A DNA stretch of 64,000 nt, taken from NCBI GenBank assembly GCA_964389015.1, contig CAYMCR010000001.1, forward strand, positions 4,561 through 68,560, read 5' to 3'. The DNA is from an uncultured Fibrobacteraceae bacterium (lineage in GTDB: Bacteria; Krumholzibacteriota; Krumholzibacteriia; LZORAL124-64-63). Under the pieces are notes generated by a model. That model saw only the letters and a program-made list of their open reading frames with translations, had not been told where the DNA came from and searched no databases. The translations under genes were made by a program, and so were the position numbers. This document shows, piece after piece, positions 1,540 through 63,854 of the stretch. The first letter of the stretch is position 1, and each line of letters opens with the position of its first letter.

Positions 1540-1633
1540 GGCGTACCATTCCGCGCCAAGGTTCAATCCTCGCGTATCCAGTATAGCATCGGCCGTCGGG
1601 AAGATACCTGTAGATTCGAGGGTCCTGACCGTA

Positions 1634-4281
<2,648 letters not shown>

Positions 4282-4285
<4 letters not shown>

Positions 4286-6524: not shown

Positions 6525-6527
6525 GAT

Positions 6528-6839
6528 CTAGTCCTCCGTGGCTTCGTCCAGTTCGCGAAGGGGCAGCGAACGCAGCTCGGTGATCTCGTTGTCGCGGTCC
6601 TTCAGATCGCGAGCCAGGGTGCGGAGCCGGTTGCGCAGCTTGATCTCGCGGATGCCGCCCACGATCAGGCTGACCAGGATGCCGGCGAGGAATCCACCCA
6701 GCATCACGTAGTAGAGGGGAATGTCCAGGTACTCCCACTTCAGCAAGCGCAGATCAACGGACTGGCCGCTGTTCTGGGTGAAGAACACGGCCATGGTGAG
6801 CAAGACGAGCAGGTAGATGATTCCCTTGAAGATCCACAC
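6528..6839 (-). CDS. lapA: Lipopolysaccharide assembly protein A (LapA/YciS, DUF1049) small inner-membrane protein
   Basis: 103 aa with two TM segments (IIYLLVLLTMAVFF; LYYVMLGGFLAGILVSLIVGGI) then a charged coiled tail. GTG start at 6839. Conserved lapA-lapB gene order. Confidence 0.65.
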   Translation of the reverse strand: MWIFKGIIYLLVLLTMAVFFTQNSGQSVDLRLLKWEYLDIPLYYVMLGGFLAGILVSLIVGGIREIKLRNRLRTLARDLKDRDNEITELRSLPLRELDEATED

Positions 6840-6869
6840 GGTTTCACCTCTCGGCTGGTTCGAGTCGAT

Positions 6870-8204: not shown

Positions 8205-8220
8205 GCTTCCTCCGTGGCGA

Positions 8221-9558: not shown

Positions 9559-9572
9559 CTCATCCGGTCTTT

Positions 9573-9609
9573 AAGAAACAGCGGGGGTGGAATCGGCTTC
9601 CACCCCCGC
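9573..9609 (-). terminator. Rho-independent terminator downstream of rpsA
   Basis: Perfect 10-bp GC stem GCGGGGGTGG (9581-9590) / CCACCCCCGC (9600-9609) with a 9-nt loop. On the minus strand it is followed by UGUUUCUUAA. Located 32 nt after the rpsA stop. Confidence 0.6.
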
Positions 9610-9640
9610 GACACATGGACGACCCGGTTCCGCGAGAGAA

Positions 9641-11956: not shown

Positions 11957-12072
11957 TTGTGGTTCCTCCTAAAAGACATATTTACCCGACTGGGCAGTCG
12001 GGCATCGGCAGAATATACACCAGTCTCCCTGTGTTTGCAAGTATTTAGGGGGTGGATCGAGAGGTCCCGCCA

Positions 12073-39234: not shown

Positions 39235-42050
39235 CGGAGCAAGGTCACCTTTCGACTGAAGACGCGGCTGCCGTCGTGGGTAGAGAGTCTCAGCAGATAG
39301 AAGCCCGCCGGTACTGTCCGTCCCGCCTCGTCGCGACCGTCCCAGTTCAACTGATAGGTGCCGCGAGCGAGCCACCACTCGCGCACCTGGCGCCCGCGCA
39401 GGTCGTAGACGCCGAGCCGGCAGGCCAGCCCTTCGTACTGCACGAGGAAACGCGTGTCGCCGGAGAAGGGGTTCGGCCCCGGCTTGCCGAGGAAAAGCAC
39501 GGGCTCGACGGTCGGCGCGACGAGCACTCCGTGCCGCGAGACGACCTCGCCGATGTCGATGCGCACCCTGGCCCTGAGCAGCGTATGTTGCGACAGGGCG
39601 CCGGCCGGCAGGACCAGCTGGTTCGCGGGGAACAGCATGTCAGCGGGCGCATGGCCGAAGGGCACGCCGCCTTCCCAGATCGTCGTCCAGACGGTCCCGC
39701 CGTCGAGACTCGCCTCGAGGGTGATCCACTCCGGCGTCTCCCATGGCCAGGACAGGGCCACGCCGTCGCGGGTCTCGTCCCAGGCGGGCGCGAAGGGCGC
39801 CGCAGCCGACGCGGGGTTCACGAAATCCATCCTGGCGATGAGCCAGCCGCGCCCGCGCCACAGGGGATCGCTGGCGAAGTGCAGGCCGAGCCGCGTCAGA
39901 CCCGGCTCTGGCTCTGGCAGAGGGAAATAGTCGATCCGCCAGCGGGGGGAGTCTTCGGCGGTCAGGTCGCCCAGTCCGATGAAAGCCGGCTGCCCCAGCA
40001 GAGGGTTGGCGACGGAGCTGTCGATCGAGCCCGGGTACCCCCCCGCCGGCACGAGCAGGTTGACTGATCCCTCGTCATCGTGGGCCGAGACTTGTGCGCC
40101 GTCGGTGCCCATCAGGGGCTCGTAGGCGTGCGCGTCCAGGGCGTGGATCATGCGCAGGACGCGGCCGTCCGTGTGAAAGGGTGGCGACAGGATACGGGCC
40201 TCGGCGGCGTTCTGGTAGGTCACGTCGGGCCACGACGCGCCGTCCTCGAACGCGCCGCCGGTGCAAGCGAGCAGGGGGACAGCGGGCAGGCCGGGCGCCG
40301 CGTTCGCCGGCCACGCATGCCATCGCGTGTCGTCACCGCCGACCAGCATTTGCACCCAGCCGCCGGTCAAGGGAACGCTCAGGGCCAGAGGCGATTCCTC
40401 TTGGCGCCAAAGCCAGCTGCGTTGGTACACACCGAGGGTCTCGCCGTCCCTCACGAGTTCGATCGCGAACAGGGTGTACGCCCCCGCGGGCGGTTCACCT
40501 GCCGGCAACCAGACGATGGGTTCGCTCAGGGTCCATACACCGCCGCCCGCGTGCAGCAGATCGCGCGCGACAGACAAAACGCCGGGCGCGAAAGCGCCCC
40601 AGTTGTCGAGGGGGATGAACAGGCTCACGTTCACGGCGATAGTCTCGGCGGTCACGGAGGGATCGAGGATCTCGATCGCGATGAGGGAATCCTCCCCCGT
40701 CGTCGTAACACTCAGCTCCAGCTGCAAGGGGTGCCCGGGGAGCGAGTAGTCGACGGTGACGCCGTCGTCGACCAGCGAGAAGGCACAGGCGATGCCGCTG
40801 GGGCCGGTGTAGGCGTCGCTGTCGGGGATGGAAGTCTGGTCCCAGTTCGCCGGGCCGGCGCCGGGCGGAAACATGTCGCCCGGTCCGCCGGACGACTCCC
40901 CCGCGGCCAGGTCGTCGATCCCGTCGGCTTCCACCAGACGCACGCGGAGATGGGACTGCTCGCCGACGGAATAGGCCCCGTCCGGCACCGACTCGTCCAC
41001 ATGATAGACGACGAGACGTGGTTCGGGGAAGGCTGCATCGTAGGGCGCGTCGTCGAAACCGCCGCGTACCTGGAGCAGGAAGTACTCATCGTCGGTGATG
41101 CCGTCGACGGGAAACCTCAGCACCTCGCTTGTCAGCAGGGTGTCGGTCGCCACGGCGCCGCCGAGCGGTTGCCGGGAAACGACCCAGCCCAACTGGGCGG
41201 CGCTGTAGGCGTCGAGCAGGGCGGCGCCGGTGCCGTCGCCACGTCCCCAGGCGCCGGCCGCCATGAGGCTGAAGGCCCCGAGTCCGCCGAGGCTCACCGC
41301 GCTGTCGGCGTCCGGCGACAGGAAGGGGTCGTAACGGTCCTCGAGACCCAGCAGGTGGGCCGTCTCGTGGGCCCAGATCCCAGGTCCGCTGTGCAGGCTG
41401 GCCACCGCGTAGTGCTGGGCGGCGATCCCGTCCAGAAGGTAAGGCGTCTCCAGGTAGTATTGCAGGGGGACCACACGGCCGTTCACGGGATCGTTCTCCA
41501 GACCGGGGGCGGCGTGCAGGACGAGCACGCCGTCCACGACGCCGTCACCGTCGGCGTCCGCGGAGCCTAAGGGGACGCCTGCCGCGGCGGCGCCCGTGAT
41601 GCTTTGCCGGGCCAGGGCGCGGGTGCGCGTGAAACCGTTGAGATACAGGTCCGAGTAGTCGGCGGCTTCGCCGTCGAGGTGTACCAGCGGTGACAGGACG
41701 ATGCGCAGCCAGCCGGGGATTCCGCTGACCGCGCTGAAGTAGCGTTCCAGGGTCTCCCCGTCCAGACCGGCCAGGCGGGGGGACAGATCTGCGGCGGCGT
41801 TCCAGCCGTTGGGCAGTCGCTTGTCGGCGAAGTCGACGGGGACGACCAGCAGATTGAACGCAGACGTTCCCTTGGCGGGGTCGGCGCTCAGTTCACGGAC
41901 CGCGACGCGACGGGCGGCACGCCAAGCGGACAAGGTGGGATCGGGAGACGGGGCCGCGTGAGCGAGCGTGGCGCAGAAGCACGCGACCGTCCCCAGCAGG
42001 ACGGCCGCCACGTGCGATTTCGGAAGCCTGCTTGTCAAGGCGCTCATCAT
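39231..42050 (-). CDS. Secreted M6-family (immune inhibitor A-like) zinc metalloprotease with a T9SS-type C-terminal sorting domain
   Basis: Signal peptide MMSALTSRLPKSHVAAVLLGTVACFCATLAHA. Zn site WAHETAHLLGLEDRYD (HExxH..E..Y), typical of M6/InhA. The C-terminal ~85 aa (KPGPNPFSGDTRFLVQYEG...GVYDLRGRQVREW...GFYLLRLSTHDGSRVFSRKVTLLR) match the Por secretion tail / FlgD-Ig-like CTD pattern. Confidence 0.8.
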   Translation of the reverse strand: MMSALTSRLPKSHVAAVLLGTVACFCATLAHAAPSPDPTLSAWRAARRVAVRELSADPAKGTSAFNLLVVPVDFADKRLPNGWNAAADLSPRLAGLDGETLERYFSAVSGIPGWLRIVLSPLVHLDGEAADYSDLYLNGFTRTRALARQSITGAAAAGVPLGSADADGDGVVDGVLVLHAAPGLENDPVNGRVVPLQYYLETPYLLDGIAAQHYAVASLHSGPGIWAHETAHLLGLEDRYDPFLSPDADSAVSLGGLGAFSLMAAGAWGRGDGTGAALLDAYSAAQLGWVVSRQPLGGAVATDTLLTSEVLRFPVDGITDDEYFLLQVRGGFDDAPYDAAFPEPRLVVYHVDESVPDGAYSVGEQSHLRVRLVEADGIDDLAAGESSGGPGDMFPPGAGPANWDQTSIPDSDAYTGPSGIACAFSLVDDGVTVDYSLPGHPLQLELSVTTTGEDSLIAIEILDPSVTAETIAVNVSLFIPLDNWGAFAPGVLSVARDLLHAGGGVWTLSEPIVWLPAGEPPAGAYTLFAIELVRDGETLGVYQRSWLWRQEESPLALSVPLTGGWVQMLVGGDDTRWHAWPANAAPGLPAVPLLACTGGAFEDGASWPDVTYQNAAEARILSPPFHTDGRVLRMIHALDAHAYEPLMGTDGAQVSAHDDEGSVNLLVPAGGYPGSIDSSVANPLLGQPAFIGLGDLTAEDSPRWRIDYFPLPEPEPGLTRLGLHFASDPLWRGRGWLIARMDFVNPASAAAPFAPAWDETRDGVALSWPWETPEWITLEASLDGGTVWTTIWEGGVPFGHAPADMLFPANQLVLPAGALSQHTLLRARVRIDIGEVVSRHGVLVAPTVEPVLFLGKPGPNPFSGDTRFLVQYEGLACRLGVYDLRGRQVREWWLARGTYQLNWDGRDEAGRTVPAGFYLLRLSTHDGSRVFSRKVTLLR

Positions 42051-46162: not shown

Positions 46163-48661
46163 TCAGAGATCGTCTGCGGTCCGTATACGGGCCGGTCCAC
46201 CGTCGCGCCAGCGGATGAAGAGAGTACCGTCGAGATCCGTACGGAAGCAGCGCAGCGTGTCGCCACCACTGGTGAAGGGGCCATGGCTCGGGTGCTGGTG
46301 TCGATTCTCCAGTCCGCAGCTGATCAGCACCGTGCCGGGGCGGAAGGCAGCCAATAACTCGGGCGTACTGGAAGTGCGGCTGCCGTGGTGACCCGCCTTG
46401 TACACGTCGATTGCGCCTGGCAACGCCAAGGGCATGTCCACGAGCAGCGCCCGCTCGCCAGCCTGTTCAAGATCGCCGGTCCACAGACCCCTCATGTGGC
46501 CGCGCCAGTACAGCGCTGTGGCCAAGGAGCGATCGTTCTCGTGCAGGTTCGGCATATCCCGGCCCGCGGAGGCGATGCAGACCAGTGCCCAGTCTCCCAC
46601 ATGGTGCAGGGTGTCGCCGGGAACGGGACGCGAAACTCGTGTCGGTACGGTGTGCGCCGGTGCGTCCGTCCGCCCCCCGAGCCACCACGCCGCAACGTCC
46701 ATGGTGGCGTCAAGCTGTTCGCGCGCTCCGTCGTGATCGGCATGGTGATGCGTGAGCACGACGCCGGCGAGGCTGTCGAGGCCCTCACGCCTGAGCCAGG
46801 GACGCACGTCGCGGGCGAAAGGACCCGTGTCCTGCCACGCCTCCCCCGTGTCGACCAGGACAACGCTGCGGTCCGGGAAGACGAGCGCAGCACAATCCCC
46901 CTGTCCCACGTCGAACTGAATGGCCGTCATCTCGCCTGTGGGCAGGGTCCTGCCGCAGAAGGGGATCGCGAGCAGACACGAGGCGGCCAGCGCTCCCGCC
47001 AGGCGCGCTCTGCGCCGTCGACCCGCAACCAGCAGCCACAGGCCTGCGAGGCCCACGACGTACAGGCCCGCCGCCCGGTAATCCCAGACCGGCAGGCCGA
47101 GTCTGGCGGCGTCCAGGGACGACAGGGCGACCGTGCCCGCGGAGAGCAGGCGCAACATCAACCAGGCCACGGCGGCAAGGCCGTCTGCGAGCCAGACCGC
47201 CGGCGACAGCAGGATGGACCCGGCGGCGAGCCAAACGGCCCCCCCGAACAGCGGCACCGCGGCGAGATTGAACGCTGTGGCCAGAGGGTGCAGCCAGCCG
47301 AAGCTCCGCGCCGTCTCCGGCAGCGCGCCCAGCTGCGCCCCGATGCTGACGGCCAGTGCGTTGCCCAGCCACCGCCAGGCACGCGGTGCGTGGCCGAGCC
47401 TAGGCGTCACGACACGTAGCGTGACGACGATGCCAGCGGCGGCGCCGAGCGAGAGGCGCAAGCCAGCGTCCGCAAGGGATGGAGGCGAGAATACCGCCCA
47501 GGCCCAGACCAGCAGGCCCAACGTGCGCAGCCCGTCGTGCCGCCGTCCCGTCCAGGCAGCCAGGGAGGCCGTGGTGAGCAGGGCTGCCGCGCGCAACGAC
47601 GATCCGGGCATACCGACCAGGAGTGTATAACCGAGCAGAAAGAGGGCCAGCAGACCAAATCGTCCCAGGAAACCGATGCGCGCGATGCGGATCAACAGCA
47701 ACAGGATGCCGGCGACGAGTCCCACGTGCAAACCACTGACGGCGAAGAGATGTCCCAGTCCCAGCACGGCATACGAACTCCGTAACTGCCGCATCCCTTC
47801 GCTGCGCTCGCCCAGCAGCACCGACTGGAGCAGACTGGACTCGTTCTGTGGATACAGGCGGTCTAGACGTCCGATGACGGTGCGACGCAAGGGGTCGAGC
47901 ACAGTAGCGCTAGCGCTGCCGAGTGGATCGCCGTCGGTCACGATGGACGCGGCCCTGGTCAAGCGGCCCTCCCAAACGAGGCCCCGGCCCTGCAGGAACC
48001 GGAAAGGCGAGAAGGAACCGGGCACCGCGGCGCGGCGGGGAACCCGGCACGTGAGATCGCCGACAACGAGTTGCCACATGCGTGGCGGCGGTCCTTCGCC
48101 CGAGACCATCACGCCCTCGGCGACCCGGGGTCCGGGACCGCCGCCGTCGGACTCGAAATCCCCGACAGCGACAAGTATCGCCGGCGCGCGCCAATGCGCA
48201 CCCGACATGCGCGGCCAGGCCGTGACGCGCAAACAGGCTCCCGCACGCCACACGCGTCGCCGCGACGGCGACCAGCGATCCTCACACACGACGCCTCTGG
48301 ACATGGCGGGTGCGTCGCTCGCCTGACAACCGGCGCACCAGCCCAACGCCGCGGTGGCGGAGATTCCGGCGAGCAGGACGACGGGGTGTGCAGTCACAGC
48401 CGCGGCGAACGGCGCCAGGCACGCCAGACGGAGCGCTGTTGCGGCGGTAAGGCCCGTCCGGGAAGTCGCTTCGCGCAGCTCCCGGCTGCTCCACTCGCCG
48501 GCCGACAACGAGGCCAGCAGCACGGCGGCCCAGACCACGGTCCAGGGCAGGGTGCGGATGCCGGCCAGGATACGGAGGACCGGGCGGGTAGTCAGTCCGA
48601 GGGTGCGCTGTAACGCGGCAAGGTGAGGATGGGATCGCCGTCGGGGTTCCAGAAGTGGCAC
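46163..48661 (-). CDS. comEC: DNA internalisation-related competence protein ComEC/Rec2 (DUF4131 + competence channel + metallo-beta-lactamase domain)
   Basis: Multi-TM central region. C-terminal MBL motif VLTHHHADHDG and later GHHGS. 832 aa. The N-terminal 70 nt overlap the GGDEF gene's 3' end, so the true start is probably further downstream. Confidence 0.85.
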   Translation of the reverse strand: MPLLEPRRRSHPHLAALQRTLGLTTRPVLRILAGIRTLPWTVVWAAVLLASLSAGEWSSRELREATSRTGLTAATALRLACLAPFAAAVTAHPVVLLAGISATAALGWCAGCQASDAPAMSRGVVCEDRWSPSRRRVWRAGACLRVTAWPRMSGAHWRAPAILVAVGDFESDGGGPGPRVAEGVMVSGEGPPPRMWQLVVGDLTCRVPRRAAVPGSFSPFRFLQGRGLVWEGRLTRAASIVTDGDPLGSASATVLDPLRRTVIGRLDRLYPQNESSLLQSVLLGERSEGMRQLRSSYAVLGLGHLFAVSGLHVGLVAGILLLLIRIARIGFLGRFGLLALFLLGYTLLVGMPGSSLRAAALLTTASLAAWTGRRHDGLRTLGLLVWAWAVFSPPSLADAGLRLSLGAAAGIVVTLRVVTPRLGHAPRAWRWLGNALAVSIGAQLGALPETARSFGWLHPLATAFNLAAVPLFGGAVWLAAGSILLSPAVWLADGLAAVAWLMLRLLSAGTVALSSLDAARLGLPVWDYRAAGLYVVGLAGLWLLVAGRRRRARLAGALAASCLLAIPFCGRTLPTGEMTAIQFDVGQGDCAALVFPDRSVVLVDTGEAWQDTGPFARDVRPWLRREGLDSLAGVVLTHHHADHDGAREQLDATMDVAAWWLGGRTDAPAHTVPTRVSRPVPGDTLHHVGDWALVCIASAGRDMPNLHENDRSLATALYWRGHMRGLWTGDLEQAGERALLVDMPLALPGAIDVYKAGHHGSRTSSTPELLAAFRPGTVLISCGLENRHQHPSHGPFTSGGDTLRCFRTDLDGTLFIRWRDGGPARIRTADDL

Positions 48662-50118
48662 CTGTTGCGGCCTCTCTGCTTCGAGAGGTACAGCATCCTG
48701 TCCGCGTTACGGTAGAGCTCCTCCGGCGTCTCGCCGGCACCGGGGTATTCCACGCCCCCGAAGGAGATGGTGACGCGTAGCGGCTCTTCGGCACCGGGAT
48801 CCGTCAACCTGAGATTGGCGATCCGGACCTGGATACGGGTGACGATGTCGTGGGCGGCCTCGAGGTCCGTGTCGGGCAGGACCAGGGCGAACTCTTCGCC
48901 GCCGACACGACAGACGAGATCGATCCGCCGCAGACCCTGTAGCAGCTCGCGGGCCACGGCCTTGAGTACACGATCGCCGGCGGGATGGCCGTGGCGATCG
49001 TTGACGTCCTTGAAGTGGTCGATGTCCCCCAGCAACAAGACCAGCTGTGATTTGCGACGGTGCGCGCGTTCCATCTCGAGCACGAACTGCTCGTCGAAGA
49101 AAGCGCGGTTGTTGACACCCGTGAGATTGTCGGTGTGCACCAGACGACTCATCAGAAGGGTCTGACGCCACCCGTTGGTTACGAAGCGAGAGATGCGCAG
49201 CGCCAGGTTGATCAAGGTCTCGCGTTCGATCGGCTCGGTGTGGATCACGTAGAGCAGCCCCACCTCGCTACTCTCACCTGCGCCTTCGGACGCCGCCACT
49301 TCAGCCGGCGGGTAAAGCGGCACGGCGACGCCCGCCGTAAAACTAACCTTTTCGCCGCCTTCCCCGCTACGACGACGCAACTGCGACGGCAGTTCGTTGC
49401 GCGACGGAATCCAGACTACTTCGCCCGCGACCCTCGTCACGGCCCAGAAGGGCCGGTCCTCCCGCGGACTGGTGCCGATGTTCGGCAAGGGTTCGGGAAC
49501 GTCCGCCGGCTTGAAGAGTTCGATGTGGAGCTCGGCGTGCGGGAAGGTCGGCTTGAGAAGTTCCACCACGTCCTGGAGTATGCAGGCGACACCGCTGCCG
49601 GTCGTGCGGGTGACCGTCAGATCCTGCGCCCGCTCCATGGCGTTGAGAAGACGTTCGTGCAACTCGGGATCGTGTGTCGACAGTGGATCCGGGTCGGGGA
49701 GTCGCTCCTCCACAGGAGCGGTCTCTTGGACTGTTTCTGCGACGGCTGCTTCTTCCGTCGGTTGCGCAGCCGGGTAGAACGGCGACAGGTCGAGCAGGGC
49801 GCCGTGGTCCTGCAACGCGTAGGTGAGATCAGCGCCCGCTTCGTCGCCGCCGACCGTAACCCTGACCAGGTCGCCGCGGCGGATCATATTGGTGACCAAC
49901 GAGCGTCCGTACTTCAGCAGAGCCTCCGGGTCGTTCGCCGCCAGGGCCACGCGCAGAGCGCGGCGCAGTGGTGTGGCGACCTGCGCTACGGAAAGGAGAT
50001 GCTGTATGAGTGCTCTCAAGGCGATGTTCGTCTCCCCTGCAGATGTCACCTTGACGCGCTTGAGTTGCACGTATATTGGTACGGGACTGGCAAGTTCGCA
50101 CGTATATAATTGTGACAC
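48592..50118 (-). CDS. Diguanylate cyclase (GGDEF domain, active-site GGEEF) with a ~330-aa N-terminal sensory region (GAF-like)
   Basis: C-terminal NLTGVNNRAFFDEQ...LLGDIDHFKDVNDRHGHPAGDRVL...RVGGEEFALVLPDT is the canonical GGDEF domain with an intact GG(D/E)EF. GTG start at 50118. Confidence 0.85.
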   Translation of the reverse strand: MSQLYTCELASPVPIYVQLKRVKVTSAGETNIALRALIQHLLSVAQVATPLRRALRVALAANDPEALLKYGRSLVTNMIRRGDLVRVTVGGDEAGADLTYALQDHGALLDLSPFYPAAQPTEEAAVAETVQETAPVEERLPDPDPLSTHDPELHERLLNAMERAQDLTVTRTTGSGVACILQDVVELLKPTFPHAELHIELFKPADVPEPLPNIGTSPREDRPFWAVTRVAGEVVWIPSRNELPSQLRRRSGEGGEKVSFTAGVAVPLYPPAEVAASEGAGESSEVGLLYVIHTEPIERETLINLALRISRFVTNGWRQTLLMSRLVHTDNLTGVNNRAFFDEQFVLEMERAHRRKSQLVLLLGDIDHFKDVNDRHGHPAGDRVLKAVARELLQGLRRIDLVCRVGGEEFALVLPDTDLEAAHDIVTRIQVRIANLRLTDPGAEEPLRVTISFGGVEYPGAGETPEELYRNADRMLYLSKQRGRNRCHFWNPDGDPILTLPRYSAPSD

Positions 50119-51965: not shown

Positions 51966-53048
51966 CTAGAAATGGGCGGTGATGCTGACGCGGTGGGTTT
52001 CCTCGTCGATCTCGAGCACGTCCCCTGCATAAGCATAGTCGATGGTCAGCATGGCGAGGCGGAAACCGGCGCCCATGGTGATGTCGTCGAGGGACCAGCC
52101 CGAATCGAAGCCTCCCCGCAGGAAGACCTTCTCGTGCAGGGCGAGTTCCCCGCCGCAGTGCACGTTCGTGCTGAGAGAGCCGGTGTGGTACTGATCGGCG
52201 GCCCGGCGGTTCTCGAAGCGCGTTTCGGCGCTGGTGGCCAGTGTGATGCGCGCGTCCCACGACGGCAGGTGCAGATTGTAGGCGAGAGCGGGCACGATCG
52301 TGGGTGCGATCTTTTCGTTCTTGGCATAGCCGTCCGGTCCCGACCAGGAGAGATAGGTCCTGGTGGCGTCCTGCAGTTTCAAACCGAAATCCAGGTCGCG
52401 CCAGATCCCGCGGCGCAGGGCGCCCAGGTCCAGGCCGATACCCACGCTCGAGTATTCGCCGACGCTCTGGCGGATGAACTTCACGGTCCCGCCCAGTTGC
52501 CAGTCGCCCTTGCGTTCGGCGTAGCTGGCGAAGAGCGCCAGCTCGGAATCGCTGGCGAACTTGATCTGGTCCTGGATGGCGAACAGGCCCTGGAGTTCGT
52601 CGTCGGTCACGGTACCGTCGCCGTTGGCATCCAGCTGATCGAAGAGATGATCGGTGAGCGGAATATCATCGATGCCGAGGCGAATAGCCGAGATGGCGAA
52701 AGCGCCGTCCTGGCCGCCGAGCAGGGACCAGCCCACGGGCTGGGCGTAGGCCACGTAGTCGCGGTCGATCAGATCGCCGAAGCGTTCGGCGTGCATCAGC
52801 AACAGGTTGCGACCGTCGGTACCTACGAGGCCGGCGGGATTCCAGAAGGCGGCGGAAGGGTCGTCGGCCACCGCCGTGAAGGCACCCCCCATGGCGAGTG
52901 CGCGCGCGCCGCCACCGTCCTCCATGAAAGCGCCGGCGTACTTGTCGGCCAAGGCTTCCGTGGGCGAGGAAGCGATGACGACGAAAAGACTGATAGCGCA
53001 GACGGAGAGGGCGCTGATATGCGTCCGGTTGGTGCCGGTGAACAGCAT
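51966..53048 (-). CDS. Outer-membrane beta-barrel protein of the FadL/OmpP1-like family (possible T9SS PorV/LptO-type)
   Basis: Start at MLFTG (ATG 53046-53048), with a GAGGAT RBS and signal peptide ...VVIASSPTEALA. The N-terminal motif GARALAMGGAFTAVADDPSAAFWNPAGL resembles the FadL-family N-terminal hatch motif (E. coli [23 protein letters not shown]). Alternating beta-strand pattern, ending in an aromatic residue (F). Confidence 0.5.
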   Translation of the reverse strand: MLFTGTNRTHISALSVCAISLFVVIASSPTEALADKYAGAFMEDGGGARALAMGGAFTAVADDPSAAFWNPAGLVGTDGRNLLLMHAERFGDLIDRDYVAYAQPVGWSLLGGQDGAFAISAIRLGIDDIPLTDHLFDQLDANGDGTVTDDELQGLFAIQDQIKFASDSELALFASYAERKGDWQLGGTVKFIRQSVGEYSSVGIGLDLGALRRGIWRDLDFGLKLQDATRTYLSWSGPDGYAKNEKIAPTIVPALAYNLHLPSWDARITLATSAETRFENRRAADQYHTGSLSTNVHCGGELALHEKVFLRGGFDSGWSLDDITMGAGFRLAMLTIDYAYAGDVLEIDEETHRVSITAHF

Positions 53049-53073
53049 GTAGGATCCTCGCATTCTCAGGGGT

Positions 53074-53100
53074 GAGAAAAGCCGCTCCGGTACGGACGGC
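53074..53100 (-). terminator. Possible Rho-independent terminator downstream of the sigma54 activator gene
   Basis: Imperfect GC hairpin GCCGUCCGUACCGGAGCGGC, followed on the minus strand by UUUUCUC. 66 nt after the activator stop. Confidence 0.4.
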
Positions 53101-53165
53101 TCATCACACATGATACGCCAATGATGCGGCCGGAGCCAAGCCCCCAGTACAGGGCCAAGTGCATC

Positions 53166-54656
<1,491 letters not shown>

Positions 54657-54673
54657 GTGAGTTCCTCCTGCTA

Positions 54674-54695
54674 TCCTGTCAGGCTTCCTGTCAGG
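54674..54695. promoter_or_regulatory. Tandem palindromic operator-like element (2 x TCCTGTCAGG; CCTG-N-CAGG inverted repeats) between the promoter and the RBS of the FleQ-like gene
   Basis: tcctgtcagg (54674-54683), ct, tcctgtcagg (54686-54695). Each unit is itself palindromic. It lies in a locally AT-rich leader (54700-54760) that contains TATTAT/TATAAT-like hexamers and a TTGGCG -35-like element. Confidence 0.4.
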
Positions 54696-54800
54696 CGCAA
54701 AATATCTCTGAATCTCTGCAATCGATGGATATAATAGCACATATGATGCACGGACGCCAACCTTGCAGTCGTGCGTGCAGGGGGCATGTCAGTTCGGCGA

Positions 54801-55292
54801 TCAGTTCTGCCGGTGCAGGTACTCCACATCCATGCCGTTGATGAAGGACTCGTAGGCCACGTTGGCGCCGGTTGCACGACCGCTCTTGAGCGCGATCTCA
54901 TCCAGCGTTTCCGCAGCTCTGCGCAGGCGCCGCAGCATCGCATCCAGGGCCTCCAACCCTAGCTCCCCCGTCTCCCCACGGCCGGGCTGTGCGGGTACGG
55001 CAGCCTGGACCGCGCGATAGGCGGCCAGACCCGCGGCGGCAGGTGCGGCTTTTATTTCGGATCGTGCCTGGACTTCGCTTTGACGTGGGCGCGTCGCATG
55101 AGCCGGCAGCGCGGGTTTCCAGTTCGTCAGGAGCACCGGCCAGGTCAGGCCGGGCAAGCGCCGGCGCAGGCGCTGGATCTGGATGTAGACCACCACGACG
55201 ATGGCCGTGCCGCCGGCTGCCAGAGCTACCGCGCCCAGCCAGGCCATGGTCTTGTTGCCGCTCTCGAGTAGATTGAGTATGTCCAGACCCAT
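54801..55292 (-). CDS. Hypothetical single-pass membrane protein (163 aa) in the flagellar regulatory segment
   Basis: N-terminal TM helix AWLGAVALAAGGTAIVVVVYIQI. Ala/Pro-rich linker. C-terminal helical region. No family recognised. Located downstream of fliA and upstream of the fleQ-like gene. Confidence 0.4.
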   Translation of the reverse strand: MGLDILNLLESGNKTMAWLGAVALAAGGTAIVVVVYIQIQRLRRRLPGLTWPVLLTNWKPALPAHATRPRQSEVQARSEIKAAPAAAGLAAYRAVQAAVPAQPGRGETGELGLEALDAMLRRLRRAAETLDEIALKSGRATGANVAYESFINGMDVEYLHRQN

Positions 55293-55345: not shown

Positions 55346-55675
55346 TCAGGCTTTCGTGTCCAACATGACGCCCTTGCCACCGTCCTCGGGCTCGTCCGCC
55401 GAGCCCGCCGTTTCCTTCGCGCCGGAGGGTGTGTCTTGCACCTCGTCCTGCGGCTCCTTGTTTGCGGTTCCGCCCCGATCGCGTTTGCGGTCGGGATCGA
55501 TCTTCTGCTTCTGCACCTCTTCGTTGTGTTTGACCCGGTCCACGCGCTTGTCGTTCTTCAACAGCTTGTCGGTCGCCGGATTCACGGGCTGCGTGGCTTG
55601 TCCCTTGACCTGGGTGCGGGCCAGATTGGCGATCTGGCTGATGGTGGTCTTGACGGAGAAGCCATCACTCGTCAT
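55346..55675 (-). CDS. Hypothetical 109-aa highly charged, low-complexity protein (likely disordered) immediately downstream of fliA
   Basis: Strong RBS GGGAGGTG 4 nt before the ATG. Composition K/D/E/Q-rich (..KHNEEVQKQKIDPDRKRDRGGTANKEPQDEVQD..). No TM helix. Confidence 0.45.
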   Translation of the reverse strand: MTSDGFSVKTTISQIANLARTQVKGQATQPVNPATDKLLKNDKRVDRVKHNEEVQKQKIDPDRKRDRGGTANKEPQDEVQDTPSGAKETAGSADEPEDGGKGVMLDTKA

Positions 55676-55725: not shown

Positions 55726-56670
55726 CTAGGTCCTGAGCGGCACATCCAACTCCATCAGGATCGCCGCCAGCTTGATCATCGGCGGCAGGGCCAGCCCCGC
55801 CATGATGTTGATCTTCTCGTAGAGCGCCTGCTTGTCGACGGCGCTGTCCGCCGTGTCTTCCCGCTGCTCACGGATCTCCTTGCTCAAGCGGTCGATCGAT
55901 TTCCGGCCGTCGCTCCGCTGGATCTTGCCGCGCAGGCGCAGGATCGCCTTGGTGTGGATCTGGCACACGCGGGATTCGGTGACGTCCAGGATCTCGCCGA
56001 TCTCCTTCAGGGTGAGCTCCTCGTAATAGTAGAGGACCAGCACCAGTTGTTCCTTGTCCGCGAGCTCGCCCAGGCTGCTGGCGATCAGGCACCGCATTTC
56101 CTCCTCGGAGACACAGGTCTCGGCGTCGGGCGTGCGGGTATCGGGCAGGTAGTCGCCCAGGCTCGAACTGTCGTCGTCGTCGGAACCGTCGGCGTCCAGC
56201 GAGACGATCGTCGCCACGGCCACCTCGTCCATCATGATCGCCAACTCGCGTCGTGTGACGCCCAGATCGCACGCCAGTTCCTCGTCCGTCGGCGTGCGGC
56301 CGAAGCGGGACTCGAGACGGTTGTGGGCGTCCTCCAGTTGGCGTGCCTTGCGGCGCAACGAGCGCGGGAACCAGTCCTGCGTGCGCAGCTCGTCGAGGAT
56401 GGCGCCGCGTATCCTGGGGATCGCGTAGGTTTCGAACTTGTTGCCGCGGTGGTAGTCGTAGTTGTCCACGGCCTGGATAAGTCCCAGCAGCCCGGCCGAG
56501 ACCAGATCGTTGTGATCCACGTAGTGGGGCAGGCCGATGGCCATGCGACCCGCTACGTACTTGACCACGCGCGCATAGAGCTCGACCAGCTCCCGGCGGG
56601 CCTCCTCATCTTCGCCTACTTCCAGACGCTCCCAGAGCTCCAGATGAGCGATCGTATTGGTCTTAAGCAT
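55726..56670 (-). CDS. fliA: Flagellar sigma factor sigma28 (FliA) with an unusual ~64-aa C-terminal extension
   Basis: Region 2 (YVDHNDLVSAGLLGLIQAVDNYDYHRGNKFETYAIPRIRGAILDELR) and region 4 HTH (LTLKEIGEILDVTESRVCQIHTKAILRLR) are clear up to residue ~250. The ORF continues through 314 aa, ending ...KINIMAGLALPPMIKLAAILMELDVPLRT. Confidence 0.85.
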   Translation of the reverse strand: MLKTNTIAHLELWERLEVGEDEEARRELVELYARVVKYVAGRMAIGLPHYVDHNDLVSAGLLGLIQAVDNYDYHRGNKFETYAIPRIRGAILDELRTQDWFPRSLRRKARQLEDAHNRLESRFGRTPTDEELACDLGVTRRELAIMMDEVAVATIVSLDADGSDDDDSSSLGDYLPDTRTPDAETCVSEEEMRCLIASSLGELADKEQLVLVLYYYEELTLKEIGEILDVTESRVCQIHTKAILRLRGKIQRSDGRKSIDRLSKEIREQREDTADSAVDKQALYEKINIMAGLALPPMIKLAAILMELDVPLRT

Positions 56671-56743: not shown

Positions 56744-57064
56744 TTACTTCTCTTCACCGATGAGTTGCTGCTTTCGCTCGGTCTTGCGCCGTTTCTTCTC
56801 CTCCACACGCTTCGCCTCGGCTTCGGCGCGCTTGGTCGCCTCGACCTCCAGGTGGGCCCGTTGCTTCGACCAGTCCTCGCGTATCCAGTCGTCCTGGATG
56901 CCTGCTCTGAAGATCATGACCAGGACCGCGCCTAGAGCGTAGAAGACGAAGTAGGCGATGGCTGCACGCTTGAGCGTGGCCAGGATTCCGTAGTCGCGAA
57001 CCAGCGCGAAACACACGGCCGCGAAAGCCGCCGTCAGAGCCGTGGTGTTGACGAGTTTCTTCAT
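56744..57064 (-). CDS. Hypothetical 106-aa protein with two TM helices and a charged coiled C-terminal tail, translationally coupled downstream of flhF
   Basis: GGAGGA RBS. 20 nt after the flhF stop. TM1 TTALTAAFAAVCFALV. TM2 AAIAYFVFYALGAVLVMIF. Tail ...EVEATKRAEAEAKRVEEKKRRKTERKQQ. It occupies the position where flhG/fleN usually sits. Confidence 0.45.
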   Translation of the reverse strand: MKKLVNTTALTAAFAAVCFALVRDYGILATLKRAAIAYFVFYALGAVLVMIFRAGIQDDWIREDWSKQRAHLEVEATKRAEAEAKRVEEKKRRKTERKQQLIGEEK

Positions 57065-57083: not shown

Positions 57084-58223
57084 TCACTCGGCGCTCGCTT
57101 CCTCGAAAACAGCGGCTTTGTCTTCATCCATTGCGGTGTCCAGGATCCGCTCCAGCAAGCGTGCGGGCGTGGCGATCTCGGCGCCGGGGCCGGGCCAGGC
57201 GCCGCCGCTGAGCAACGAAAGCGGCAAGGGCGCCGCGAGCAGGATGTCGATCAGCTTGCCCGCGCGTGCCGTCAAGTCCAGCCGCGTGAGCGCCAGCCAG
57301 TCGCAGTTCCAGGTCCGCGCCACGGCCCAGGCCCGTTCACGTTCGGCCAGATCGGCATCCACCGGCAGCAGCAGGTGCCGATGCACTTCTTCGTGATCGG
57401 CGAACAGTCGATGCAATTCATCGTCCGCGAGGGCCCGGCCATCCAGCGAAGGCGTGTCGATGAGGACCACGTCGTATTGCTCGAAGTACTCCAGGCCGCC
57501 TGAGAGCTGCGCGGCGTCGCGCAGAATCGCCGCGTCGTAACCTCGCGCGGACGCCTCCTCCTGCAGACGACGAATCTCGCCCCCGTGACGCGGCGCGTAG
57601 GACAGGACCAGGATACGGCGCCTCATTTCCTTGAGCCGGGCGGCGACGGAAAGAACGAGGTCGGTCTTGCCGGCGCCGGGGCCACCGAGGAAGAGATGAC
57701 AGCCGGCCAGATCGCGCCACCCGCCGCCGCTGGTGCGCAGCAGACCCGCCAGGTGGTTCCGCGCGGCCCCTGGAGTATCGTCGCCCCCGGCCTCGGCCCG
57801 GAACAGGCGCTGCAGATGGCGGACGGCGGGCAGGGTCGCACCGACGGTGAGCAACTGCCGCCCGAGGGGGTAGTCCCCGATGGCCGCCTTGTCCGCGCCG
57901 GCACGTTGGTTACGCGGGGCGCGCAGGGTCTCGATGAGGTCCTCGATACGCTCGACCTCTGCGGCGATCGCCCGCGTGTAGTCCGGTCGGGAGCGGTCGG
58001 ATGCGACGGCGGGCGGGGTCGCGGCGCCGGTCTCCGGCAGGGTTATCGTGACCTCGATGAGCCGTGCGCTGCCCAGACCGGTCTCGTCTCGTCGGGTCAC
58101 GCTCTTGGTGTCGACGATGCAGGCGCGTTCGCCGTACTGCCGCCTCGCATTATGCAGAGCCTCACGGAGCGTGTGGCCGGTGACCTTGTGCCTGGGCGTC
58201 TCAGGCTGTCGCTTGCTGCGCAT
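57084..58223 (-). CDS. flhF: Flagellar biosynthesis SRP-like GTPase FlhF
   Basis: Basic N-terminal region. GTPase G1 motif LFLGGPGAGKTDLV. G3 VVLIDTPSL. G4 TRLDLTARAGKL. Overlaps the flhA 3' end by 22 nt. Confidence 0.85.
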   Translation of the reverse strand: MRSKRQPETPRHKVTGHTLREALHNARRQYGERACIVDTKSVTRRDETGLGSARLIEVTITLPETGAATPPAVASDRSRPDYTRAIAAEVERIEDLIETLRAPRNQRAGADKAAIGDYPLGRQLLTVGATLPAVRHLQRLFRAEAGGDDTPGAARNHLAGLLRTSGGGWRDLAGCHLFLGGPGAGKTDLVLSVAARLKEMRRRILVLSYAPRHGGEIRRLQEEASARGYDAAILRDAAQLSGGLEYFEQYDVVLIDTPSLDGRALADDELHRLFADHEEVHRHLLLPVDADLAERERAWAVARTWNCDWLALTRLDLTARAGKLIDILLAAPLPLSLLSGGAWPGPGAEIATPARLLERILDTAMDEDKAAVFEEASAE

Positions 58224-63482: not shown

Positions 63483-63854
63483 TCAGCCGCGGTCGGGGCG
63501 GTCGTTGCCGCGCAGGCGGTCCAGCCAGCCGGCGAGGGACGGTGCCGGCGTCGTCGCGTCGTGACGCTGGGGATCGAAGGGCTCCTGGTCCAGCAGCACC
63601 ATGGCCTGGTCGCTGCGGTACAGGGTGTAGACCGTTTCACCGCAGCGCAGCACCTCGACGCCGCGGCGCGGTCCCAGGGAATGCACGCGCAGCAGCGAGG
63701 CCTCGGCCCCGCCGCCGCCGCGCTGCTGGCGGCCCAGGATCTTCAGAAATACGATCAGCAGGGCGAAGACGAGCAGGAAGGCGCCGGCCAGCTTCCACCA
63801 GGAGGGATCGCCGGGCTGCGCCGCAGCCGCCAGGATGAAACGTGGAGCGAGCAT
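63483..63854 (-). CDS. fliO: Flagellar biosynthesis protein FliO (probable)
   Basis: 123 aa. Single TM (WWKLAGAFLLVFALLIVFLKIL) near the N-terminus. Gene lies between fliN and fliP, the conserved position of fliO. Its sequence is poorly conserved in general. Confidence 0.6.
   Translation of the reverse strand: MLAPRFILAAAAQPGDPSWWKLAGAFLLVFALLIVFLKILGRQQRGGGGAEASLLRVHSLGPRRGVEVLRCGETVYTLYRSDQAMVLLDQEPFDPQRHDATTPAPSLAGWLDRLRGNDRPDRG

Follow-up and report, generated by a model that had tools for sequence, protein, structure and literature searches.

The window analysed in this work is a stretch of 64,000 nucleotides of DNA from a member of the Krumholzibacteriota, and on its minus strand it contains an ORF (55726..56670) whose translation of 314 aa (314 codons and a stop) has the C-terminus ...TKAILRLRGKIQRSDGRKSIDRLSKEIREQREDTADSAVDKQALYEKINIMAGLALPPMIKLAAILMELDVPLRT, identical to that given in the first-pass annotation. 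Sigma-70 regions 2, 3 and 4 were all found in this protein, in that order, by the Pfam models (residues 28-100, E 1e-17; residues 108-183, E 7e-10; and residues 200-247, E 7e-19, respectively), and the protein is matched by the NCBIfam models TIGR02479 (FliA_WhiG; 262.3 bits, cut-off 189.6) and NF005413 (FliA; 230.5 bits against a cut-off of 201). Foldseek searches returned SigD, WhiG and sigma-28 chains, and the structures matched by the body of the protein include 1RP3/1SC5 (Aquifex sigma-28/FlgM). Directly upstream of this gene and on the same strand are fliP, fliQ, fliR, flhB, flhA and a flhF-like gene, and motAB, fliL, fliM and fliN are present farther upstream, which together provide the flagellar context of a sigma-28 gene. 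The predicted product is unambiguously a FliA/WhiG sigma-28, a group 3 member of the sigma-70 family, and the gene is referred to below as fliA. A scan of the window for promoters of the TAAA-N15-GCCGATAA type gave three weak and uninformative sites, late flagellar genes being absent from the window; no sigma-28 promoter was found within or after the 3' part of fliA discussed below, and there was no Rfam match to a structured RNA across the whole window.

The genes adjoining fliA are arranged in the order flhF, a truncated FlgV-like 2-TM gene, fliA and a small conserved gene. The flhF-like gene (57084..58223, minus strand) encodes a divergent GTPase with an SRP54 domain, which scores 57 bits with TIGR03499, below the cut-off of this model. 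No flhG follows it, and a Walker A motif of the MinD/FlhG type was found in 0/16 loci of the clade. The gene at the -1 position relative to fliA (56744..57064, minus strand), assigned from its position and by hhalign, encodes a small 2-TM protein of 106 aa of the FlgV type. Such a gene is present immediately upstream of fliA in the loci that carry the extension described below, with no match returned for L010 and with the gene in L006 contained in a single ORF that includes the end of flhF. The features of the FlgV (BB0268) family were taken from a study which describes FlgV as a membrane-bound protein of the flagellar basal body that is co-conserved with sigma-28 (PMC11607428). The -1 gene shows two N-terminal TM helices, the basic residue of TM2 with the acidic residue that precedes it, and the position between flhF and fliA. 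Alignment of the FlgV-type family with spirochaete FlgV by hhalign gave a probability of 90.6% (E 1.3e-6) over 58 columns of the 2-TM region, in which the conserved WRDyG...LKR aligns with the ...LLRA region. The Krumholzibacteriota proteins are 70-120 aa in length, without the conserved C-terminus or the long polar cytoplasmic tail; spirochaete FlgV ends in P..(I/M)A.A(I/L)RT.L.RD.

On the other side of fliA, the gene at the +1 position (55346..55675, minus strand) encodes a conserved small protein of 109 aa, which is found directly downstream of fliA in 14/14 loci that carry the extension described below. It begins 50 nt past the fliA stop and has a good Shine-Dalgarno sequence (GGGAGG), so that fliA and the +1 gene are probably co-transcribed. 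The protein combines an N-terminal DGxSxxTxxxQ, a charged middle and a C-terminal GxxIDxxx, and its remote homologues are located downstream of fliA-fapA in Spirochaetota. It has 246 homologues, and among those listed none has a Pfam domain and all of the source names are "hypothetical protein". As 0/11 of the +1 proteins match Pfam FlgM even at E <= 10 and a profile search of the PDB returned nothing relevant, the possibility that the +1 gene is flgM is unsupported by Pfam, by the PDB or by homologue annotation. The gene at +2 (54801..55292, minus strand) encodes a single-TM protein of 163 aa with homologues in L005, L006, L004, L014 and L010. The spirochaete gene at this position matches DUF6115/DUF2802 (TM + DUF, FipA-like), and the +2 protein has no Pfam match, so the equivalence of the two genes is one of position only. 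Genes farther downstream are of housekeeping types (viz. purH, guaA, secA, topA, and xerC-like, hslU-like and argF-like genes), and fapA is absent locally. The first-pass annotation had remarked that no flgM was recognisable nearby, and this holds for the window and for the 10 kb on either side of four related loci with Pfam-annotated genes. Because flgM usually does not adjoin fliA, its absence from the neighbourhood is weak evidence. The published KO table of one Krumholzibacteriota MAG contains one fliA, four fliC and no flgM, with fliK, fliO and fliH at zero as well. The flagellar module around fliA is remodelled in this clade.

The most distinctive feature of the locus lies at the 3' end of fliA itself. 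The canonical sigma-28 body (regions 2, 3 and 4) occupies residues 1-250 (55921..56670, minus strand), with the family models ending at residues 247-252; in the TIGR02479 alignment, residues 28-250 correspond to model positions 1-223 of 224. Since the models stop at about residue 250, residues 251-314 are located beyond every sigma-28 model and constitute a C-terminal extension, or tail, of 64 aa (55729..55920, minus strand). The solved sigma-28, WhiG and SigD chains, which are 219-254 aa long, match the body only, with 33-42% identity where aligned. The tail is retained, with its frame and motifs intact, in 120/120 of the best database homologues (down to 58% identity), and it is also present in 10 GTDB species representatives. 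Its length past residue 250 is 40-75 aa in the 120 homologues (mean 65), the 40 aa case being a single truncated variant. The tail is missing from the closest FliAs outside this set (<=53% identity; Spirochaetota, Zixibacteria, Ignavibacteria, Fibrobacterales, Cloacimonadota and Acidimicrobiia), which end about 8-12 residues past region 4.2.

In principle, an indel introduced during sequencing or assembly, or the loss of a stop codon, could produce a spurious read-through past residue ~250, and hints of instability are seen in two frameshifted or chimeric database entries (P0128 and P0125) and in one read-through ORF in L008. This explanation is extremely improbable, however, as the identical 314 aa protein is present on 17 contigs of independent samples and all 120 homologues are in frame. 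In comparison with the closest relative, L005, the Ka/Ks is 0.14 for residues 251-270 and 0.22 for residues 285-314, both well under 1, against 0.13 for the body; the value of ~2.3 for the segment between them is computed from few sites. The GC3 of the tail is 0.94 versus 0.86 for the body. Frame conservation, the 17 contigs, Ka/Ks and GC3 together refute a frameshift or lost stop as the origin of the tail. The claim of the first-pass annotation that this FliA continues for about 64 aa beyond residue ~250 is thus borne out by TIGR02479, by Pfam and by all of the homologues, and neither of the two outcomes that it had named as refuting was seen: no frameshift or premature stop was found, the 120 orthologues from independent assemblies being in frame, and in the ortholog alignment the tail is present throughout the clade with the exception of the P0091 lineage and absent from the outgroups. 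From the conserved frame, the selection and the limits of its distribution, it follows that the tail is a real, selected and clade-specific addition. It is confirmed to be conserved, under purifying selection in both of its helices and restricted to the FliA of the clade.

Only the P0091 lineage departs from the full tail within the clade. Its FliA ends 5 residues into the terminal helix (on at least 10 contigs), and its locus is also without the FlgV-like gene, the +1 small gene and fliOPQR-flhBA, a co-loss that may reflect a general decay of the flagellar locus. A search of 1.84 billion cluster representatives with the tail profile gave 14 matches, of which 13 are fragments or frameshift chimeras of the clade's FliA and the remaining one, P0129, is an unusual repeat ORF. 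A mobile module carried by other proteins is ruled out by this result. Descent of the tail from a fapA remnant was likewise rejected: the tail HMM (--max) finds no FapA or other ORF in 70 outgroup loci (best E 0.6), and the C-termini of FapA look unrelated to the tail.

The tail consists of three parts, the third of which ends in a short cap. The first of these, block 1 (residues 255-270, GRKSIDRLSKEIREQR; 55861..55908, minus strand), is an amphipathic helix with a hydrophobic moment of 0.7-0.85, recognised from its moment, consensus, Ka/Ks and AF2 model, and a turn with an invariant G255 and a nearly invariant S258 precedes the helix. Its consensus among the homologues is GKIQRHEGKxSIGRLTxEI; it is basic and runs straight on from the region 4.2 recognition helix. 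The second part is a charged and polar linker (residues 271-284; 55819..55860, minus strand), which differs in both length and sequence among the homologues, has a pLDDT of 56-65, and is predicted to be flexible and freely evolving. The third, helix B (residues 287-306, INIMAGLALPPMIKLAAILM; 55753..55812, minus strand), is a hydrophobic 20-mer identified from hydropathy, periodicity, Ka/Ks and pLDDT, and it is the only segment of the tail with a Kyte-Doolittle 19-mer mean above 1.6 (1.75 in the window's protein; 1.74 on average for the 120 sequences of the clade, and up to 2.4). It is followed by the C-terminal cap, ELDVPLRT (residues 307-314; 55729..55752, minus strand), with a recurrent Gly/Asp-x-Pro motif. 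The homologues end 0-15 residues past the helix in forms such as ...DVPLRT, ...GLPGA, ...GGWPG.. and ...GPPA, and many of them finish in small non-polar residues (...PGA, ...PPA, ...VA). A charged linker followed by a hydrophobic helix is therefore present as first annotated. The terminal helix had also been called amphipathic, and this part of the description did not stand: its hydrophobic moment is 0.1-0.3, and the strongly amphipathic helix of the tail is that at residues 255-270.

Helix B comprises about 19-21 hydrophobic residues ending 0-15 residues before the C-terminus, and it is rich in Ala, Leu and Val in many members. Its sequence drifts while its hydrophobicity persists, as in INIMAGLALPPMIKLAAIL, VTACLAVAPLAATLLAATV and VMACLTLCQLSAYLAWLAS. 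The residues that are retained, namely I287, N288, A291, L295, M298, A302 and L305, form a conserved face, and the power of the conservation signal is maximal at 100-110 degrees, a helical periodicity from which it follows that one face is likely kept for a specific partner. Conserved positions 2, 5, 9, 12, 16 and 19 correspond to an a/d heptad pattern with Asn at "a", and helix-destabilising residues occur as Asn at position 2, Gly/Cys at 6 and Pro/Gln at 10-11. The opposite, variable face carries K/E/R in some subclades and mostly small residues (A/S/T) in others.

The position of helix B in the protein is that of a tail anchor, for which one hydrophobic segment of about 18-22 residues within the last ~30-50 is typical, here residues 287-306 followed by 8 residues; the same geometry is seen in 119/120 homologues, with no signal peptide and no other TM segment. 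Its suitability for membrane insertion was gauged by a simple sum of Hessa-scale values. The sum is +5.6 for the window's helix B, with a clade mean of +3.5 and a range of -0.2 to +9.0; it is <=2.5 in 37/117 tails and above +4 in 39/117. The tails at <=2.5 match ElaB and YqjD, two tail anchors of E. coli (+1.5 to +2.1), and are far from the amphipathic membrane-targeting helices of MinD and FtsA (~16). Two prolines and K300 are located inside the window's helix B, and a positive-inside bias is absent, the mean net charge being -0.29 before and -0.19 after the helix. For the FliA of the window, the predicted hydrophobicity is borderline for membrane insertion. The residues of the variable face are not the bulky lipid-facing ones expected for a TM helix, and this pattern also fits a helix that docks on a soluble protein.

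These last properties lend some weight to a reading in which the tail acts in cis: block 1 would lie on region 4, helix B would swing back by way of the linker and cover the hydrophobic core-binding surface of region 2 or region 4, and the factor would be held shut for as long as neither a partner nor a protease has taken the tail away. The tail, with two helices joined by a flexible and freely evolving linker, resembles FlgM, whose separate helices are wrapped around sigma-28 (Aquifex sigma-28/FlgM, 1RP3/1SC5). Block 1 and helix B are each one-sided, in conservation or in amphipathicity, and helix B accepts K/E/R or small residues on its outer face as a solvent-exposed face would. For the subclade of the window, the borderline hydrophobicity disfavours a genuine TM segment; in addition, flgM is not recognisable in the window or the related loci. 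Extensions of the ECF41 and ECF42 types furnish a precedent, since they touch the core sigma domains and regulate them (PMC7826278). Autoinhibition of this kind is nevertheless unlikely in our estimation. Similarity in sequence to FlgM (PF04316) or to any anti-sigma or other Pfam domain was found in 0/40 tails even at E <= 10, the profile of these tails against the PDB gave noise alone (E > 1), and on the basis of these searches a FlgM-like or other known domain is ruled out. The AF2 model, based on the alignment of 120 sequences, has a break at residues 253-254 and then a single straight helix of 53 residues (255-307) with a pLDDT of ~80 in helix B; its confidence is low (pTM 0.36) and only its pLDDT and secondary structure were read. 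The first-pass annotation had asked whether the tail docks onto region 4 or region 2, and at this low confidence the model shows no fold-back on either. Moreover, an uninterrupted hydrophobic stretch of 20 residues exceeds what a docking helix usually needs. Among the functions that the first-pass annotation had offered, the tether or partner helix is tentatively favoured by the hydrophobic segment, its one-sided conservation and the FlgV-type gene upstream, and the anti-sigma-like element finds no FlgM match.

A different interpretation is that the tail is not a switch at all and serves some other purpose without sequestering sigma-28. Block 1, which is basic and continuous with the region 4.2 recognition helix, could contact DNA upstream of -35 or RNAP; helix B, with its heptad pattern and Asn at "a", could mediate homodimerisation through its N-A-L-L-A-L face; the small non-polar ends of many tails could form part of a hydrophobic C-terminal degron that sets the half-life of the protein; and the tail could be a site for a chaperone or for the +1 protein, whose gene is always co-encoded. 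We regard this interpretation as improbable, as a 20-residue helix with a conserved face and a linker of variable length would be needless for a degron or for DNA contact, helix B has hydrophobic or small residues at its e/g-type positions where soluble coiled coils have charged ones, and the results give no specific support to any one of these roles.

The tail probably tethers or restrains sigma-28. The form of this proposal that we put forward tentatively, as a possibility somewhat short of an even chance, is that the tail is a lineage-specific regulatory appendage in which helix B tethers sigma-28 to the membrane or to a membrane partner. What we infer in this proposal is that helix B associates with the membrane, which partner it has, and that sigma-28 is sequestered and later released. 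Helix B would insert into the cytoplasmic membrane or lie on it, and its conserved face (N288-A291-L295-M298-A302-L305) would pack against a partner in the membrane, for which the truncated FlgV-type 2-TM protein encoded immediately upstream of fliA is the foremost candidate. Such a tether could confine sigma-28 to the place of flagellar assembly, out of reach of core RNA polymerase, with release brought about by a signal, a proteolytic cut or a rearrangement of the partner, and it would in this way take over or supplement the role of the diffusible anti-sigma factor FlgM. The points in favour of tethering are the hydrophobic stretch of helix B, its drifting sequence with retained hydrophobicity and one-sided conservation, the FlgV-type 2-TM gene beside fliA, the co-loss in P0091, the straight tail of the AF2 model that does not fold back, the 37/117 tails that match the sums of ElaB/YqjD, the precedents of ECF263 and ECF220 described below, and the lack of a recognisable flgM in the scanned loci. 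Against it are the borderline hydrophobicity, the missing positive-inside bias and the tolerant variable face, and the link to FlgV is one of gene adjacency, with FlgV adjoining fliA in phyla without the tail as well. A more specific version, in which sigma-28 is tail-anchored and packed against FlgV at the flagellar base and an assembly step or intramembrane cleavage frees the sigma factor in place of FlgM export, appears doubtful; the Asn/Gly/Pro residues of the helix would mark a possible site of cleavage.

In the textbook checkpoint, export of FlgM couples late flagellar gene expression to assembly. The sigma-28 of this candidate phylum may represent a different solution, consisting of a conserved appendage of its own in an altered module. 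If the tail tethers or autoinhibits sigma-28, group 3 sigmas would join the ECF factors as examples of the "one-component sigma" principle, and the locus would provide a direct handle on the function of FlgV and on the +1 small protein family that is shared with spirochaetes; if it only stabilises or dimerises the protein, it would represent a modest clade-specific curiosity. The tail is short and modular, and the idea is hence testable in a heterologous host.

With the canonical systems of FliA/SigD/WhiG and secreted FlgM, the clade shares the sigma body and a flagellar operon in which fliA follows fliPQR-flhBA-flhF. The characterised and solved sigma-28 proteins stop about 5-12 residues past region 4.2, whereas the FliA of the clade adds 64 residues, and neither the tail nor the +1 gene shows similarity to FlgM. 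Judged from the sequences compared, a tail of this kind is not found on any characterised sigma-28. The literature searched gave no relevant report of a C-terminal extension of FliA or of tail- or membrane-anchored sigma factors, and to our knowledge no group 3 sigma factor anchored in the membrane has been described. The anti-sigma factors RseA and RsiW, as well as SREBP, are membrane-tethered regulators that are freed by regulated intramembrane proteolysis, and site-2 proteases prefer helix-destabilising residues. Their logic would be shared by the clade's FliA only if helix B is a membrane anchor. In bacteria, the component that is anchored and cleaved is the anti-sigma factor and not the sigma, and no site-2 or other protease gene is linked to fliA here among the 26 window proteins scanned, which lie beyond the first ~23 kb.

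The tail also resembles, in its ~20-residue hydrophobic segment within the last 30 residues and its large cytoplasmic N-domain, the C-tail-anchored membrane proteins (PMC6389858), but it differs from them in being borderline hydrophobic, in the lack of flanking positive charges and in the presence of Pro/Gln/Lys inside the segment. Regulators fused after region 4 are well represented among ECF sigmas, where C-terminal extensions are SnoaL-like in ECF41/56, TPR in ECF42 and Cys-rich in ECF238, consist of 5-7 TM helices in ECF263, and in ECF220 are accompanied by TM proteins at +1/-1; these extensions correlate with the absence of a separate anti-sigma factor and some of them span the membrane (PMC7826278). 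The likeness lies in a sigma factor with a putative regulator of its own fused after region 4, and the tail may act in the manner of an ECF extension. The ECF sigmas (group 4) have regions 2 and 4 only, whereas the FliA of the clade has region 3 and belongs to group 3, so that it is not a member of the ECF family, and its tail contains none of the SnoaL, TPR or Cys-rich domains and is not detectably homologous to these extensions, being distinguished by a single terminal hydrophobic helix in place of a folded domain or a multi-pass segment. The closest parallel in gene order is the sub-module FlhF-FlhG-FlgV-sigma28-FapA-YjfB-(TM+HTH), whose passages in PMC11607428 do not describe a sigma-28 extension. 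The order of flhF, the FlgV-type gene, fliA, the small protein gene and the single-TM gene in the clade matches this sub-module as given there, from which the clade differs in having neither flhG nor fapA at the locus, in a FlgV pared down to its two TM helices and in the tail of its sigma-28.

The fliA gene (55726-56670, reverse strand), which lies at the end of the flagellar operon fliP-fliQ-fliR-flhB-flhA-flhF-like, encodes a 314 aa sigma-28 protein in which the sigma-70 regions 2, 3, and 4 are placed by Pfam at residues 28-100, 108-183, and 200-247; motAB, fliL, fliM, and fliN are found farther upstream on the parent contig. The NCBIfam model TIGR02479 (FliA_WhiG) matches this protein with 262 bits (cut-off 190) and is exhausted at residue 250. 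Since the matches to these models stop by residue 250, residues 251-314 (nt 55729-55920, reverse strand), which lie past the end of all sigma-28 models, represent a genuine 64-residue extension, and the C-terminus of the ORF is exactly that given in the first-pass annotation, where an extension of about 64 aa had been described. The PDB chains matched by the AlphaFold model in Foldseek (viz. B. subtilis SigD, Streptomyces WhiG, and sigma-28 from Aquifex, Pseudomonas, and E. coli) are 219-254 residues long, and in all of them the alignment is restricted to the body of the protein.

An identical FliA protein is present in 17 contigs from independent samples, and the best 120 database homologues (291-336 aa, 58-100% identity) extend beyond region 4.2 in 120 of 120 cases. 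When one genome per GTDB species was scanned, the tail was identified in 10 species (loci L005-L014); most of these carry the public label Candidatus Krumholzibacteria or Krumholzibacteriia, and a few are MAGs under the names Fibrobacteraceae, Gemmatimonadales, or "bacterium". Beyond these species FliA identity falls sharply to ≤53%, and the outgroup FliAs that were inspected (viz. Treponema, Zixibacteria, Ignavibacteria, true Fibrobacterales, Cloacimonadota, and two actinobacterial lineages) end 8-12 residues past region 4.2 and carry no tail. Ka/Ks values computed against the closest relative (87% identity) are 0.13 for the body (residues 1-250), 0.14 for the first part of the tail, block 1 (251-270), about 2.3, from few sites, for the linker (271-284), and 0.22 for the terminal helix, helix B, together with its cap (285-314); GC3 is 0.94 in the tail versus 0.86 in the body. 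The identical protein in 17 contigs, the uniform retention of the tail among the best homologues, and the low Ka/Ks of both helices exclude a sequencing or assembly artefact, and neither of the two outcomes that had been set against the tail (an indel; orthologs uniformly lacking it) was found.

The anatomy of the tail was drawn from alignments of 31, 120, and 40 sequences. Block 1 (consensus GKIQRHEGKxSIGRLTxEI), which is preceded by a conserved turn where G255 is invariant and S258 almost invariant, is a basic helix of very high hydrophobic moment (0.7-0.85), and it is followed by a charged/polar linker that varies in length and sequence across homologues, by helix B (INIMAGLALPPMIKLAAILM, residues 287-306), and by a short cap in which a Gly/Asp-x-Pro motif recurs (DVPLRT, GLPGA, GGWPG, GPPA). 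Helix B, which ends 0-15 residues from the C-terminus in all homologues compared, had been described as amphipathic/hydrophobic; the hydrophobic part of this description holds (Kyte-Doolittle 19-mer mean 1.75), but the amphipathic part does not (moment 0.1-0.3). Its hydrophobicity is conserved clade-wide (mean 1.74, up to 2.4) despite residue changes. Column entropies for 114 distinct tails, anchored on a V-N-x-x-A motif, indicate that positions 1, 2, 5, 9, 12, 16, and 19 (I287, N288, A291, L295, M298, A302, and L305 in the window) are conserved, and the power spectrum of this conservation peaks at 100-110 degrees, hence an alpha-helix is conserved along a single side. On the other side, K, E, or R occurs in some subclades (K300 in the window) and mainly A, S, T, or C in the rest; Pro or Gln is the usual residue at positions 10-11. 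These data show a selected, bipartite helical appendage, the terminal helix of which combines one conserved, putatively partner-binding face with the geometry of a tail anchor. It is improbable that its role is other than that of a switch, viz. contact of block 1 with DNA or RNAP, dimerisation via the heptad-like N-A-L-L-A-L face, chaperone binding, or a degron.

No consistent match to FlgM or another Pfam family was found in 40 tails, even at E ≤ 10, and a profile of the tail gave no meaningful PDB match. Run on 1.84 billion cluster representatives, this profile retrieved 14 proteins only, of which 13 are fragments or frameshift chimeras of FliA from the tail-bearing clade. The 14th, P0129 (210 aa), is an odd repeat ORF in which ...QQVNIMAGLALC(R/Q)AES..., reproducing the start of helix B, occurs four to five times in tandem; it is probably a spurious ORF across repeated DNA. 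Descent of the tail from a remnant of fapA, the gene after fliA in other phyla, was rejected, the profile comparison with outgroup loci being negative. With no match in Pfam, the PDB, or fapA, and none among the cluster representatives apart from these 14, the tail is thus a clade-specific invention that lacks detectable relatives.

A simple, position-independent Hessa-scale sum is +5.6 for helix B of the window, +3.5 on average (range -0.2 to +9.0), and ≤2.5 in 37 of 117 tails. The ElaB and YqjD tail anchors fall at +1.5 to +2.1, similar to these 37 tails, and the amphipathic membrane-targeting helices of MinD and FtsA at about +16, far from all tails. A charge count over the tails of the clade found no positive-inside bias around helix B. 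Helix B is thus TM-like by length and position but only marginally so by hydrophobicity, particularly in the window's own subclade. The AlphaFold2 model of FliA (120-sequence alignment; mean pLDDT 75.7, pTM 0.36) contains a helix spanning 232-252 and, after a break at 253-254, a continuous helix at 255-307; pLDDT is 56-65 in block 1 and in the linker, rising to about 80 in helix B. As 255-307 is a straight 53-residue helix in which no fold-back on region 4 is possible, the model, in which confidence in the linker is low, lends no support to docking of the tail on the sigma domains, for which this check had been proposed. Autoinhibition in cis, in which block 1 would pack on region 4 and helix B on a core-binding surface, is the main rival of the tether proposed below. 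It is favoured by the charges tolerated on the outer face of helix B and by its marginal hydrophobicity; however, this helix is long and hydrophobic without interruption, the tail shows no similarity to FlgM, and the model draws it straight, all of which argues against autoinhibition, and we consider it rather unlikely.

The gene order flhF-like, small 2-TM protein, fliA with tail, and 105-122 aa protein is common to 14 of the 14 tail-bearing loci examined, and is often followed by a single-TM protein and then a sigma-54 activator. The 2-TM protein of the window (56744-57064, reverse strand), located between the flhF-like gene and fliA, matches spirochaete FlgV in hhalign with 90.6% probability (E 1.3e-6) across its two TM helices, a conserved basic residue included. 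Spirochaete FlgV has a long polar tail and a conserved C-terminal peptide, P..(I/M)A.A(I/L)RT.L.RD; both are missing from the FlgV-like proteins of the tail-bearing clade, which are FlgV-type proteins reduced to a TM hairpin. The flhF-like gene (57084-58223, reverse strand) is highly divergent (TIGR03499 57 bits versus a cut-off of 174). In tail-clade loci flhG is absent after it and fapA is absent from its usual site after fliA; a MinD/FlhG-type Walker A motif is found in 0 of 16 loci, including the 64-kb window, and in 40 of 70 outgroup loci.

The 109 aa protein encoded directly downstream of fliA (55346-55675, reverse strand) carries a DGxSxxTxxxQ motif in its N-terminal part and a GxxIDxxx motif in its C-terminal part, separated by a charged stretch of low complexity, and gave no match to FlgM in Pfam and PDB profile searches. 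Its family has 246 members, none listed with a Pfam domain and all named "hypothetical protein" where a source name is given; remote homologues (local HMM E 1e-6 to 4e-3) occur among Spirochaetota, in Leptospira-like and Treponema-like loci, downstream of fliA-fapA and upstream of a TM+DUF6115/DUF2802 gene. In one Krumholzibacteria MAG (locus L008, 10001-11131) the fliA frame has 376 codons, running past the usual stop and overlapping the start of this downstream gene, perhaps because the stop codon was lost or the locus misassembled. A 163 aa single-TM protein (54801-55292, reverse strand) occupies the position of the spirochaete TM+DUF6115/DUF2802 (FipA-like) gene; as it has no Pfam match, this equivalence is one of position only. 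Also conserved in related loci are three genes that follow directly downstream of the sigma-28 module, all on the reverse strand: a sigma-54 activator (53166-54740) whose N-terminal region has no match (no receiver domain found), a GGDEF diguanylate cyclase (48592-50118), and a UPF0164/EF-hand protein (51966-53111); other clade members, as at locus L004, have HDOD/HD and response-regulator genes inserted at this place. A 939 aa ORF (39231-42050, reverse strand) among the housekeeping genes guaA, purH, and secA has a coding-like GC3 of 0.85 and no Pfam family at E ≤ 1e-5.

A flagellar sub-module FlhF-FlhG-FlgV-sigma28-FapA-YjfB-(TM+HTH) has been described by Zamba-Campero et al. (PMC11607428), who showed that FlgV is bound to the membrane, resides in the flagellar basal body, and is conserved together with sigma-28. 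The flhF-FlgV-like-fliA-small-protein module of the window is this sub-module, and the small protein probably corresponds to the "YjfB" box of the gene-neighbourhood figure in that paper; the Krumholzibacteriota version differs in that flhG and fapA are missing from the module, FlgV is a TM hairpin, and sigma-28 bears a tail. The immediate neighbour of the tail-bearing fliA hence encodes a FlgV-like membrane hairpin protein of the flagellar base. Our preferred reading, which we tentatively put at somewhat less than an even chance, is that helix B acts as a tether holding sigma-28 at the membrane or on a membrane partner, the first candidate being the FlgV-like protein, and that sigma-28 so held would be kept from core RNAP until released. 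Such a tether may conceivably also replace the flagellar checkpoint based on FlgM export.

A natural variant is seen in the P0091 lineage (loci L085, positions 1-12876 from contig NODE_9_length_233725 of ERZ781239, and L086), where FliA, found in at least 10 contigs, ends ...KVNVTV, five residues into helix B. In L085 fliN is followed directly by flhF, and fliO/P/Q/R, flhB, flhA, the FlgV-like gene, and the small gene downstream of fliA are all missing from the locus, which retains motAB, fliLMN, flhF, and the HDOD and sigma-54 genes. Such a co-loss would fit a joint action of helix B, FlgV, and the small protein with the export gate, and may equally represent general decay of the locus or a relocation of the genes.

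The earlier remark that no recognisable flgM lies nearby was borne out in the window proteins scanned and in the annotated ±10 kb related loci. A BlastKOALA table for one Krumholzibacteriota MAG with an otherwise rich flagellar set (fliA 1, fliC 4, fliD, fliS, flgK, and flgL 1 each) lists flgM and flgN as 0, and fliK, fliO, and fliH also as 0 (PMC10936416, supplementary file 2); short divergent proteins were therefore clearly missed, and the flgM count is no proof of genome-wide absence. A 123 aa ORF just upstream of fliP (63483-63854, reverse strand), conserved in all related loci with no Pfam match, is by its position probably a divergent FliO, and this divergence, if so, would account for the fliO count of 0 in the KO-based annotation of the phylum. 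An entry named "flagellum site-determining protein", the Prokka name for FlhG, is absent from transporter table S2d for the same MAG (PMC10936416, supplementary file 2).

ECF (group 4) sigma factors are well known to carry C-terminal extensions with a regulatory role; these constitute the second commonest mode of control, tend to occur where an anti-sigma factor is lacking, and include membrane-spanning versions, e.g., ECF263 and ECF220 (PMC7826278). No such extension on a group 3 flagellar sigma factor, and no tail-anchored or membrane-anchored sigma factor, turned up in our literature searches. The ECF extensions sit on group 4 sigmas; the tail described here sits on a group 3 flagellar sigma.
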